NCBI GenBank assembly: GCA_044892525.1
Contig: CM097885.1
Coordinates: 5,458,001-5,522,000, forward strand
Length of the DNA stretch: 64,000 nt
DNA from: Schmidtea polychroa
Taxonomy: Eukaryota
Direction of reading: 5' to 3'
The translations under genes and the position numbers were made by a program. Shown here piece after piece: positions 27,848 through 51,297 of this stretch (within the stretch, counting starts at the first letter, position 1; each line of letters opens with the position of its first letter). The notes below the pieces were generated by a model. It ran no database searches and was not told where the DNA came from. It saw nothing but the letters and a program-made list of their open reading frames with translations.

Positions 27848-28559
27848 AGTAGTATATAATAAGGACTCCAGGACACTTTCAAGGTCATGGAATATCAAGA
27901 TCAAATATAGGTCAATTGAATCATTTATTATTATTACTATTTTTTTTTTTTTAAATTAACATTTTATTTAATTACTTCTTTTTAATTTTTTCTTTATAAT
28001 TTTATTAATTAATTATTTTATGATGTTATATTTTTAATTACTTACTTTAGTTAATTTTTAATTTATTACATTTAATTAATTAATTTGTTTATTAATATTT
28101 TATTTTAATTACCTTCGCTATTTAATTATTATTATTATTAGTTTTTTTTTAATTTTAATATTATTTAATTACTTCTATTTATTTATTTTATTTTTTTTTC
28201 TCTTTAATTTTATTAATTAATTATTTTATGATGTTTTATTTTTAATTACTTACTTTAGTTAATTTTTAATTTATTACATTTAATTAATTAATTTGTTTTT
28301 TAATATTTTGTTTTAATTACTAACGTTATTTAATTATTATTATTATTATTATTTATTTTATTTATTTATTTATTATTTTTTAATTTTACATTTACATTAT
28401 ATTCTAACAAGAACGTAAATTATAACAATAATATTTCTTACTTGAAACTAATTATCTAAAATAATTGGACAAATGAATTATTAAATGATAAAACATATTT
28501 TAATTAACGAAGACAAATTATTCACAATATATATTTTATTATTCACATAAATTTAATTG

Positions 28560-31500
28560 TTAAAGTGCTTGTTTCGATTTGCATTCATTTCTAGACATAG
28601 CAGTTGCAATATGCATTTGGCGAATCTTATAGTGACCGTAGGCATAACTTTCATTACAATTGTACCAATACCTTTTATCGTCCAAACATTGGAGAGCTCG
28701 TTTGTCTGTCATGAAAGTATACAACTGATGATTGAAACTTCCTATTCTTTTTTGTGGGATGCTCACTGTTCCACCATCAGTATACACTTTTTTATAGGCT
28801 TCATGTGTAATATTAGAATTTGTAAGGCTTATTCCTTTGGCTTTTAGAGTGTTTTTATCGCCTTGGAGTGAGTAGCACTTGGGTCGAAGAAACACCCATT
28901 CTTTATATTGATTTCCTTTATTCTCATCCTTAACTTTCCCGATTACAGAACAGATTTTATCAGAGAACAACGGATCGGTCACTGGATAATTTGAAGTATC
29001 TAGGAGCCCATCTTCAATCATTTTTGGATATAGTTGTAAGCGTAAATCTACATTTTTACACTCCAAAAAGAAGGAATCTGTGTCACCAGCTACGATATTA
29101 ATTTGACAATTGAATTCTTCTCTATAACTCTGTAGTTCTTTATATTGAAATTGGTACATGCGAAGTTTGGATAAATCAAGTACGGTTTGTCCAATATACA
29201 TTGGTCTATCTAAACACACAATTTCCTTATTGAGTATAACAGCAATGAGATTATCCGCAATCTTGATGCTACGACGAAACATAGGATGACTACAATAAGT
29301 TATCAATCTTTTGCTTTTGTTGCATAATCTCAAATTTATACGTTTCTTCAAGTTTTCCACAGTTTTACCGTATAAACTGTTGTTCTTTAACTTATAATAA
29401 TCTCGCTGAAACGAATCTGTACTAGCTGCTCTCATTTTGGTATTGTAATCAATATATCCTTTGAAAATAGCCACTTGTTTGAATTCTACAGCACGATTAA
29501 CTTTTGTGCCTTTTGCGCCGTAACTCAACCACTCTGTCAAAACTCTACCATTAACTACATAGTTTTTCTTAGGCTCATGAGTTAACAACAGCTTTTCAAT
29601 TTTACTACCAGGCGGATAACAAAGCTCAGGAGCTATAGGTAAATCATCTAGTTTATCTTGTATACTATCAGGAATGACTATGTCAACCTCTAGAACATAT
29701 CCACGATCTCCATCAAACTCATCCCCATTTGCACATCTTTCAACAATACCATTCATTTCAGTCTGATCTTCTAACCATCTAAATTCCCCAACAGGAAGTT
29801 TTTGCGACAGCGCCCATCCATATAAATTATTAACATCTAAGTATGACATTTGTGTTGATTCATCAGCTTCAACATGATGTTTGTTGATAAATGTCATTCC
29901 ACCACGAATACCAGCTTCAAATAAACGGTAAAGCTCTGGATCTTGAATAAGTTCTACCGGTTCAGGTAACTGTTTAATAGCTGATGCCCAACTTAATCCG
30001 GATATGGAAACAAACGATAGAGCCTCAAGTCCATCTTCGTCAAATGTTTTTTCTCTGAAAGCTTCAAAAACATCGGCCAACAGAAAAACATCCAGCTTGA
30101 GATATACTAGCATGTAATCTAGCAGTGTGTCACAGTTGTATTGTCGCCAGATTCGATTTGCATGTATATAATCTTCGTCACTAACTCCCTCCCAAATCGG
30201 TGGTAATTCTGTTATTGACTGTAAAACATCCATTGATGTAGCCATATCATAAGGAAAAATGGTTTTACAAGTCATCATCTGCGATTCGAAAACATCTGAG
30301 GTCAGTGGAAGACATGGTAAATCTTTTGATAAATTTGCCAAGCTGCTATTTAAAAATTGTAAAGAATCAATGAATCTAATTCTTCTGCCTTTCGATGTCG
30401 CTGTAAGTGTGAGAAACTTTTCTGTTGATTGAGGAATAACATTTAAATTCCAATCAGGGAATTTTCCAATTGCATATTTTAATATATGATGAATGTCATA
30501 TCCACGAAGATTATGAAATACAACAGGTAAAGACGGATTGATTCTTCTAGCCAAGTTGCAAACTTGACATGCTGCTCCGAGATATTGACCAGTAAAATGA
30601 TCATGATCTCGAACAGGTATATTGATAATCTTTTTACAAAGGTAGCAATGAGTTTGATTCGTAAATTCTTCCTGCTGTTCCCAAGTGAGTTCCATCATTT
30701 CCTTCGATCCATTAATTTTATACCACGGATAAACTATGTCTGTAGCTATATCATCCAATGCTTGTATAAACTGAATGATACAGTTTTTCCCAACAAATGT
30801 TTCATTTCGAATCGGACAACCTTGATGAAGAAGCACAAATTCAGATGCAATCGGCTCATGTTTTTGGAAGTGCTTGTCATCTAGAGGTAATATTGATTCA
30901 AAGTCCGCGTAGACAACAAACTGCTGTTTTATAGTTTTACTCCAGTCTTTAAATTCGATATATTTATTCTCTGGCATTGAGTATAGAGTCGTCCGCTCCA
31001 CATTCTTCCTACAAAGACCTATATGTCTTTCAAAAGCAGGACGTTTTTGAAACCCATGAAGACATGTATGACACCAATGTGATTGGATTCTGAATCCTTC
31101 TACTCTATCTCTGTAATTCAGCAGTCGATCGAGATTAGTTACAGCCAAAAAATGATAATTTAATTCTAAAATTTAGTTAATATTTTTAATGATTAAAAGA
31201 AATATTACCTTCTTCAATCAATAGGAGATATATCTGAGATCCCGTCGAAGTACTTCTATATACCAAGTCAACGAACGGATTCTTGAAAATATCATTAGTT
31301 TTTTGTTTAATTGGATCTTTATTATATTTGAGAACATTGATCGCTAGATTTGGATTCATTGCTTCAAATTGGCAAATGTTAACCAACTTCATTGGAAACC
31401 AATCTGATTTCCATTTTAACTCTAAATATATATATATATATATATATATATATATATATATATATATATTTTTAGAATGATATAAATATATATTACCACT

Positions 31501-48312: not shown

Positions 48313-51297
48313 TGTGATATATTAATATATCTTTTTAAAAAATATGTTTGTATTCTTTTATAATGTATATATTTTATTGAAAACTCGTTATAGTTTTCAC
48401 TATTCTTTCTATGTTTAAACATTATATTTTCATATAAAATTATCGAAAATGTTTCAGCATAGAAAGGATATTATTGGTAAAAATTTTTATTTTTGAAAAC
48501 TTGTAATGTTTTTATATTTGGTATACGAGAAGATAATTTCTAACAGTAGTTTGCAGTGAGCATGCAACTACATCTCTTTTATAATAATATTAATGATAAT
48601 AATAATAATAATGTGTGTGTGTGTTGCGCAGTACCCTTGTGACTTGTTGAGCGTGAGCAGTACCCTTGTGAGCATTACCAATAATAGTAATAATAATAAT
48701 AATAATAATAATAATAATAATAATATAATTAAGACTTTGAAAATAATAATAATAATTTTAATCTTCCGCGCGGGCGTTCTTTCCCAATAATAATGATAAA
48801 TTAAATAATTACATAATCGATAATGTAAACAAACGTAATCGATAATTAAAAAAAAATAATAATATAATCAACGATTTAAACAAAATTAAATTATTGTGTA
48901 ATTGATAATTAAAACAAAAAAAAATATAATCAACGATTTAAACAAAATGAAATTATTGTGGAATTGATAATTAAAACAAAAAAAAATTATTATATAATTA
49001 ACGATTTAAACAAACGAAAAGTAGGACTCCGCTGGCACAGTTAATAATATTTTTGAAAAATAATAATAATTTTTTCATCAATCAGTGTCGGACTAAAAAA
49101 TTAATAACTTTTATAATAATTATGATAAAAATTATTTCGATAGCTCAAAAGATTTGTCTCCGTCTGGGCTTCAAAATGAACTATAAATTGTTTAAATATT
49201 TTAAGTTTCAGACTATGTTTTGGGTTGACGAAAAGTAGGACTCCACTGGCACAGTTAATAATATTTTTGAAAAATAATAATAATTTTTTATGAGTCATTG
49301 TCTTTGTTGTATGAGTCATCGGATGAGTCATTGTCTTTGTTCTAGACGAGTGATGAGTTGACCTTGAAAAAAAATTTTTTAATTTTTCCGGCCGGGGGGG
49401 GGGGGGGGTACTGTGCCAGCGGAGTCCTGTTCTGGCGGTGCCCAATCCATCTACTCACCATTTGCATCTTATTTGAATACTACAGTCATTATTACGATGG
49501 CAGTTCATTAAACGTGTAATGTTGGTCACTGCGGTGTAATGATAATTATCCTTATTTTCCAAGAGTAATAAATAAATTGGAGTACCGCCAGTAACCGTTG
49601 ATCTGTGAATTATACTTAAGTGGGGGTGTTTAAAAACATAGTCATTAGGAACCTGATCATCATCAACTATCACAGTAGGGGTATAAGCCAGAACATTTAT
49701 GGCAAGATTTAAGTCTAAATTTTTCTTTTCGAATTTAGGTATATTACACAATTTCATCGGACAATCCGTGACTTCATTGTAATTAAGAATATTTAAAAGA
49801 TTTTCATATTTTGAAACTCTTTCAGGGTGGCTACCTATTTCATCTTTTTTCAAGAGCGCGAGAATACTATAAAGGAAACACTTATGACCCTTATTTTTAA
49901 CATTTATAATTGCTCCTTTAGATTTCAAATCTGCGGGTGTACGAATGTAACTATGACCAGATAGGCGACAAATAGGAGCAAATTTAGTCAGAATGAAATC
50001 GATCTCTAAGATATTAATTACTCTCCAGCCACTACCTAAATAGGTAAACTTTTCAATTTTTTCGTTTAACTTATTAACTCCCTCAATTAAAATGTTATGG
50101 GAAAAGATCTCGGCGTTATTTGAAAAGTAGTTGTCACGGATTTCCCCATCTTTTTCAAATCTTATAAGAATAGCGAATTGAATTTTGACGCTACCCATGT
50201 TATTTATTTCAGATGTTAACTTTTCAGTGATTTTATCCGTTATTATAATTTTAATTAATTGTGAATCGGCAATATTAAATCGAATAGTTCGAATGGCGCC
50301 ATTTAAATTTGATTCTATTATCGGCTCAATCGCTAAAGATGATCCACCTATTTGATTTATAGTATTTATAGTATTATCATTATTTATATTTTCATTTATA
50401 GCATTTATAGTATCAATATTATCATTTATAATATCATGATTTATAGTATATGTAATATTATTACATTCGTCATCACTGAGTAGAATGGCTTCATTTTTAA
50501 TAATTTCGTCGTCACTGATCTCAATAACTTCAGTTTTTATAATTTTATTTTTAATTTTAGACACCCTATGTTCAGCAGGTCTTTTATTAGATTTCTTTTT
50601 TGTGTTATTATTTAAAATATTTACAATTTCAATGTTATTCTTATTTATTATTTTAAACAGTTCTTTTTTATTTGTTTTGAAAGAATTTAAGTGCTGAGAA
50701 TGTTGACTATAAAATTCCTTATACCTTACACTCTGGGAAGTTTTGCATATGGGGCAAATAAAAAAGTTGATGCTATTAAAAGGTTGGCGATAATATTTCT
50801 TCATATTTTTGTGGCATTTATTGTCATGACCCATAGACGAATTACAATATTTAGGATAAAATTTGCCTAATAAAAGTTAAATAATTATTTATTGAATGAA
50901 AATGTATTATTTATTTAATAATAATAATAATAATAATAATAATAATAATAATAATAATAATAATAATAAATGTAATTTAATCTTTCATTTAAAATTTGTC
51001 TATAATATTATCAACTATAAAATAATTAGTTAATGCTAAATAATGCTAAGTTATTATTATTATTATTATTATTATTATTATTATTATTATTATTATTATT
51101 ATTATTATTATTATTATTATTATTATTATTATTATTACTACTACTACTAATACAATTACTATTATAATTATTACTATTACAATTACTATTTTAATGATTA
51201 CTGAAATAATTTACATAAAGCTATATTTACATTATATTTACATAAAATCTATATTATTAAGTTATTAATTAATTAAAAACTATATATTAATAAAATG

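Follow-up and report, generated by a model that had tools for sequence, protein, structure and literature searches.

Background

In the usual model of Polinton mobility, paired terminal inverted repeats (TIRs) are needed to form a panhandle. Alternative or composite transposition, as in Ac/Ds, the P element and IS pairs, uses one end from each of two elements in one event and leaves one target-site duplication (TSD). Self-complementary genomes that carry one end type twice and depend on a helper arise by fold-back synthesis in snap-back or copy-back defective viral genomes and in the panhandle repair of adenovirus ends. Here we describe a locus in Schmidtea polychroa, within a window of 64,000 nucleotides (contig CM097885.1; G000:C1:5458001-5522000 of a 781-Mb eukaryotic assembly), at which two Polinton-related parts, called P3 and P4, share a single TSD. 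Our preferred reading of P3+P4 is a mixed-end insertion in which one partner is a polymerase-only Polinton satellite with a fold-back structure; this reading draws on a small sample of copies and on a junction without read support. Unlike snap-back viral genomes, the P3 family consists of integrated DNA and has retained a polymerase of its own, with hints of purifying selection on it. Whereas the two ends used in Ac/Ds, P element and IS pair transposition come from the same family, those of P3+P4 share only AGTAG, and an integrase is found in neither partner.

Polintons are defined by the polymerase pPolB together with an integrase (PMC5499653; PMC6431247), and their TIRs measure 100-1500 bp and their TSDs 5-8 bp (10.1101/2023.08.22.554363). 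P3 resembles Polinton/Maverick elements in its pPolB (PF03175), AGT-type termini and 6-bp TSD (PMC8097293; 10.1101/2023.08.22.554363). It departs from them in having no integrase, ATPase or capsid match, and in that its "TIR" is a whole 6-kb arm with a polymerase gene, well outside the range just cited (10.1101/2023.08.22.554363). Vertebrate Mavericks are described as intronless (PMC8097293), whereas the P3 polymerase has predicted introns, and P3+P4 differs from a Polinton/Maverick further in bearing two unrelated ends. The accessible part of a study of C. elegans genomes reports 10 loci with pPolB beside a TIR and no integrase (10.1101/2024.01.15.575659). These non-autonomous derivatives share that composition with P1 and P4 of our window; a fold-back structure, a centre from a foreign family and mixed ends with a TSD are undescribed in that part of the study (10.1101/2024.01.15.575659). 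Integrated mitochondrial invertron plasmids (pAL2-1 and kalilo) carry new long inverted flanks, which are ascribed to panhandle intermediates (PMC1864894). They too are protein-primed linear DNAs and have the same geometry as an arm, a Polinton end and an inverted arm in succession (PMC1864894). However, these plasmids are mitochondrial and have no DDE integrase or TSD, and what is inverted in their flanks is host DNA and not, as in P3, a heritable arm that codes for a polymerase. No report of a palindromic polymerase-only Polinton or of a mixed-end insertion was found in literature titles and abstract openings, a scope that leaves out Repbase and subscription papers.

Methods

The labels P1 to P4 are those of a preliminary description of the window made from its letters alone; P5 was added in the present analysis. 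The genome search for P3 gave 67 matches, from 16 scored out of 7960 candidates. Candidates with mixed ends were obtained by crossing 100 of the 379 centre-motif places with 100 of the 153 free P5 ends. For the junction between P3 and P4, short contigs of four public runs from two studies were compared with positions 33880-34660. P3 exons were compared with one common reference, and some of the alignments came from the same locus.

Results

The window holds a nest of Polinton-type elements in which P2 and P3+P4 (27848-49455) both interrupt the pPolB gene of P1, the element that surrounds them (Table 1). The hexamer CACCAT flanks P3 and P4 taken together, as the preliminary description had stated; its chance at window composition is 1.4e-4. 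In tblastn with the P2 pPolB as query, the match to the P1 gene runs up to residue 485 of the query on one side of the insert and resumes at residue 485 on the other. Therefore, no target sequence was lost and the borders differ by the duplication only. P4 has paired TIRs, but its flanks taken alone are unlike (TACTGT versus CACCAT), confirming that it has no TSD of its own, and repeat comparison agrees with the earlier statement that no inverted partner of the left end of P3 (27848) is present in the window. That description also noted a sequence common to this left end and the terminus of P1; the sharing holds, with the sequence corrected to CTCCAGGACA(C). Paired TIRs are present in P4 alone and in two-ended copies of P3 but not in the P3+P4 unit, and a 6-bp TSD with AG..CT termini is found for P3 or P3+P4. 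The integrase had been thought to need little more than AGTAG, and AGTAG is all that is common to the extreme tips of the five Polinton families compared. As a side observation, three P3 junctions (27847/49456; L051:1348; L045:1197) lie less than about 60 bp from the same Cys-Pro-His-Cys motif in Polinton polymerase genes.

P3 represents a single arm of a Polinton derivative that has a fold-back structure and in which no gene other than the polymerase was found. Its left-end pattern has 1154 matches in the assembly. In the mapped copies the same end occurs twice and the interior is an inverted duplication, unevenly deleted; the usual form is thus an arm, a captured Polinton terminus and the inverted arm, with the same outer ends and its own 6-bp TSD. 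Such a TSD is present in 12 of the 14 two-ended copies whose flanks were examined and missing in the other 2, so that the suggestion that P3 might always be fused to a Polinton end does not hold. It had also been supposed that P3 might prove to be the left arm of an ordinary Polinton. That was not the case in the copies examined, including two large P3-ended copies probed for this, both of which are palindromic: one of 12.8 kb has a polymerase in each arm and centre-type repeats in its middle, and one of 16.8 kb is an uneven palindrome containing foreign sequence. No autonomous parent with P3 ends was found among the mapped copies or in these two. The family thus has a self-complementary genome around a short spacer, as in snap-back genomes, and combines Polinton-type ends and TSDs, many young copies and the absence of an integrase, as non-autonomous Polinton derivatives do. 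Because neither an integrase nor a capsid match was found in it, we class P3 as a Polinton derivative rather than an autonomous member; it is a dependent, satellite-like element.

Several P3 copies are nested in other Polintons. One of them, L051, lies within a P2-like polymerase gene next to an imprecise deletion in which the host element has lost about 600 bp; it was considered as a hybrid with mixed ends and rejected, being a P3 copy beside that deletion. Near the start of C1 (G000:C1:381583-1220774), all 21 of the exact P3-type ends listed are on the minus strand, several of them in runs spaced 4.4-4.6 kb, so that P3-derived units are arrayed in tandem at a contig end. At G000:C2:50716622-50725468 (L053-L056), a palindrome of palindromes has three centres in one P3-ended element with the TSD TAGATA. 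Other arm subfamilies (L034, L035, L045-L048 and L062) have the inner boundary and the centre in common, and in them sequence like the P2 region 15741-17299 replaces the polymerase arm or lies beside it.

The only gene detected in the P3 arm is pPolB, which is 54-57% identical to the polymerases of P1, P2 and P4. Its N-terminal part would be spliced: short introns are predicted between 31166 and 32290, where the frame is continuous in P1 and P2, and these include, besides the introns in Table 1, two further upstream candidates (32151-32191 and 32249-32290). The intron borders are kept in nearly all aligned copies, though the copies are young. In 20 of 20 long alignments the main exon is about 98% identical to the window copy, with 409 replacement differences over 1790 sites and 326 silent differences over 488 sites; given the shared reference and shared loci, these hint at purifying selection on the polymerase. 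The P2 integrase matches nothing in P3 or P4 within the window, nothing across 27848-49455 matches the ATPase or the capsid-like proteins of P2, and NCBIfam and PDB searches added nothing further.

At the right end of P3, overlooked in the preliminary description, 33934-34089 forms a 29-bp inverted repeat around a spacer, with a folding z of -12. This centre consists of TIR and terminus sequence of P5 (Table 1), a further Polinton family. The P5 terminus without an arm occurs 153 times, often paired at 12-18 kb; all three P5 pairs tested have a TSD. Within one P5 copy, three probed stretches are similar to the TBP-like region, the capsid-like gene and the pPolB of P2. The centre motif itself occurs 379 times in the assembly, and in 29 of the 30 matches fetched the inner arm end stands directly before it; only the P4 side of the window locus departs from this. 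A different centre, of 422 bp and with P2/P4-type termini, is present in the palindrome G000:C1:53191528-53200153 (TSD ACGATA), which is joined at the same arm base and has the same geometry, one long and one short, as the P5-type centre. A second joint of the arm with a P2/P4-type end lies at G000:C1:35438723 (L062), for which neither the far end nor the outer arm end was located. Thus, ends of at least two Polinton families, P5 and a P2/P4-type one, have become joined to the P3 arm. TGACTCA and TGACGTCA arrays, which we take to be AP-1/CRE-like, are common to the centre (33934-34089) and the TIRs of P2, P4 and P5. Both polymerase copies have the centre upstream of them, and it could serve as a bidirectional promoter.

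In palindromic copies, CTACTGT continues as TTTTACTC, and the read-through of the centre is CTACTGTTTTTACTC. At the window locus only CTACTGT is left, so that P4 takes over after the first 7 bp of the palindrome's right arm, a point that the preliminary description had also overlooked. Therefore, the join lies inside P3 rather than at one of its free ends, and the ancestor of the molecule had two arms. Reading the extra GT as an unprocessed viral dinucleotide proved unnecessary, as GT is arm sequence and other joints are without it. The public-run contigs neither support nor refute the junction; one joint in them (33942 to 34093), from a run (X1) that may stem from the source sample, matches an arm/P2-type junction that is present twice in the genome.

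Mismatched ends recur. Three candidates have a free P5 end on one side and a P3 arm on the other, and two of the three have exact TSDs: TACCTT stands on either side of G000:C1:53580037-53586290, and TATAAG on either side of G000:C2:109841730-109848392, whose P3 end was found through the hexamer predicted for it. In both of these loci, as in the window, the arm is absent on the side of the full-length TIR. The mixed-end arrangement is therefore genuine and has parallels of its kind, even if the P3/P4 joint itself is unique. A joint of another sort, at G000:C3:4261876 (L061:376/377), sets a P2/P4-type terminus blunt against a P3 outer end with a gap of 0. About 0.002 such joints would be expected by random insertion (a hand estimate, which rises if nesting is favoured), and the P3-type far end with the TCTACT duplication that plain nesting would leave was not found there. 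Among 2525 end matches there were no joints of P2/P4 to P2/P4, and no other joint of P2/P4 to P5 was found in the assembly.

The features of the nest are given in Table 1. Integrase and ATPase matches in the window are confined to P2, which also holds a capsid-like protein (a candidate identified by features only). P2 and P5 look like ordinary Polinton/Maverick members. P1, in which no integrase match was found, and P4 are deletion derivatives with pPolB and a TIR but no integrase, and the loss of structural genes from P4 may have preceded or followed the joining event. The P4 TIRs are 92% identical, with indels. The long terminal repeat (LTR) element inside P4 has a gag-like open reading frame (ORF) and, on the opposite strand, galactosyltransferase fragments; no pol was detected in it. 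P2 has ORFs at 22770-23207 and 9279-9770, one TBP-like and one RING-finger. P1 carries an ISXO2-like transposase ORF (51409-52374). Outside the nest, an unbroken ABC-F-type ATPase ORF (58704-60323) stands beside inverted repeats at 60001-63818.

Table 1. Positions of the nested Polinton-type elements and their parts in the window
Feature	Position	Strand	Remarks
P1, outer element	4287-55828		TSD TAAGAT, TIRs ~2 kb
P2	8254-27378		Inside P1 polymerase gene; TSD AACAGC
TSD, left copy CACCAT	27842-27847	+	Inside P1 pPolB gene
P3 arm, half of fold-back family	27848-33940	.	From outer terminus AGTAGTATATA.. to inner boundary ..GAGTAAAAACAGTAG
P3 pPolB, main open frame	28560-30977	-	805 amino acids, PF03175
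P3 pPolB, N-terminal part	30978-32100	-	Predicted GT-AG introns 31166-31208, 31422-31496, 31659-31706
144-bp tandem repeats	33217-33878	+	Upstream of P3 polymerase gene
Palindrome centre	33941-34082	.	~120 bp of P5 TIR (34082 to 33961, 89% identical) and 22-bp inverted P5 terminus (33941-33962)
P3 right-arm remnant CTACTGT, 7 bp	34083-34089	+	Junction with P4 after 34089
P4, P2-related Polinton derivative	34090-49455	.	Paired TIRs and pPolB (PF03175)
P4 left TIR	34090-34919	+	
LTR retroelement in P4	36308-42719	+	1035-bp LTRs, 99.4% alike
P4 pPolB region	43992-48312	+	N-terminal part broken, including ~260-bp insertion near 45059-45318
P4 right TIR	48680-49455	-	
TSD, right copy CACCAT	49456-49461	+	

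Discussion

On balance we think it probable that a P4 end was joined into a P3 palindrome and that the hybrid was integrated in trans by the outer end of P3 and the far end of P4. The P3 family would have originated when a linear, protein-primed DNA became joined to a Polinton end, after which strand-displacement synthesis would have turned back on itself within the TIR and duplicated the arm, giving a palindrome. The family probably arose by such a fold-back, and the geometry of the centre is the same for the two captured families. Because its own integrase is absent in the copies examined, P3 presumably depends for its movement on integrases supplied by full Polintons, P2 or P5 for example. 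These helper integrases would insert P3 ends, sometimes one P3 end together with one end of another family. At the window locus, the left end of P4 would have been joined into the P3 palindrome 7 bp past the centre, either through strand transfer of one end only or because P4 had nested there at a donor site, and the linear hybrid, from the P3 outer end to the P4 far end, would have integrated whole into the P1 polymerase gene, producing the CACCAT duplication. P3 and P4 share this TSD, and from it we infer integration in a single event; if the hybrid did integrate as one piece, a single integration can make use of two ends from different families. The claim of the preliminary description that two replicons had integrated as one molecule with unlike ends thus stands as regards the different replicons and the single TSD, and it is extended by the recurrence at two of three candidate loci.

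Several points weigh against this reading. The P3/P4 junction is unique in the assembly, no P3 copy was found there that could have served as donor by harbouring P4 at TACTGT, and none of the 32 contig pieces listed bridges 34089/34090 (12934 further pieces fall outside this list). At the third P3/P5 candidate, G000:C1:147990419, there is no P3 end with its hexamer nearby. The 14 two-ended copies examined are drawn from about 580, a sample that may have missed an autonomous P3-ended element. Fold-back synthesis and integration in trans are both deduced from sequence. Finally, a precise deletion after insertion would yield an identical sequence, and P3 copies do lose arms after insertion, though imprecisely at L051.

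Such a loss in place would require a P3 palindrome with the TSD CACCAT, a P4 nested inside it with the TSD TACTGT, and a deletion between CTACT termini that removed the second TACTGT and the right arm. Nesting is common here, with P2 and P3+P4 in P1 and P3 copies in other Polintons; asymmetric deletion of arms is frequent; and CTACT ends both termini, a microhomology of 5 bp. However, the arm offers 50210 direct 5-mer pairs, and by hand estimate the exact terminal pair would be expected about 0.01 times in some 580 copies, while the exact form is nonetheless seen in two P3/P5 elements. The one deletion after insertion that could be checked, at L051, is imprecise and took host sequence with it, and we regard precise loss as quite unlikely. 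The end-to-end ligation proposed in the preliminary description would have opened P3 at its centre, ligated a free P4 end to it and integrated the product whole, with P3 arms habitually capping free Polinton ends. The arm does meet the Polinton terminus at an identical base for P5 and for P2/P4-type ends, the window join falls 2 bp beyond the CTACT motif, and the blunt joint on C3, with its low expectation under random insertion and no P3-type far end of the kind left by plain nesting, also favours ligation. Nevertheless, joining of two natural free ends is not borne out at the window locus, where the right arm runs on for 7 bp, CTACTGT, before P4 starts and where the additional GT belongs to the normal sequence of that arm. 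The missing P2/P4-to-P2/P4 joints and the lack of another P2/P4-to-P5 joint also speak against ligation, an exchange at the AGTAG common to both families could account for the second arm boundary, and at the C3 locus the support comes from the joint itself. Ligation therefore seems unlikely for the window locus, even though one blunt joint of two ends exists elsewhere and end joining may occur as a process.

Fusion of P3 and P4 by misassembly of a repeat-rich region draws on the high repetition of both families and on a unique junction that is unbridged by the listed contig pieces. Against it, the TSD matches and the target gene is contiguous across both sides, no shared repeat that could have caused a collapse is present at the joint, and the same type of end pairing occurs at two other loci; we consider an assembly error very improbable. 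The single TSD common to both parts had also suggested a two-segment genome, or P4 as a helper of P3. Both parts code for pPolB only and neither has an integrase, ATPase or capsid match, so that they lack the complementary genes of a segmented genome, and in place of obligate co-occurrence P3 stands alone in 12 of the 14 copies tested while the joint is unique. This proposal is largely refuted, and we give it hardly any credence. A hitch-hiking satellite had been offered as another possibility; it fits in so far as P3 is dependent and satellite-like, but P3 is very unlikely to have ridden on P4, as both encode pPolB and neither has a match to an integrase, ATPase or capsid protein.

Beyond the mixed-end insertion that we prefer, we tentatively raise the possibility that P3 is a self-replicating Polinton satellite that has kept only its polymerase, repeatedly takes up termini from unrelated Polinton families and cycles between one-armed, mismatched forms and two-armed palindromes, both integrating by means of borrowed integrases that read little past AGTAG. 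If this is true, a second round of capture would have been caught in progress at the window locus, and Polinton families could exchange polymerases and ends by swapping of this kind.

Polinton replication and integration have so far been inferred from sequence. Elements such as P3 and P3+P4 are missed or misnamed by annotation that relies on TIRs. If our reading is correct, ends of two families with an exact TSD would show that matching TIRs are unnecessary for integration and that end recognition is loose, and a polymerase-only fold-back family with captured termini would be a fossil record of strand-displacement and fold-back intermediates.

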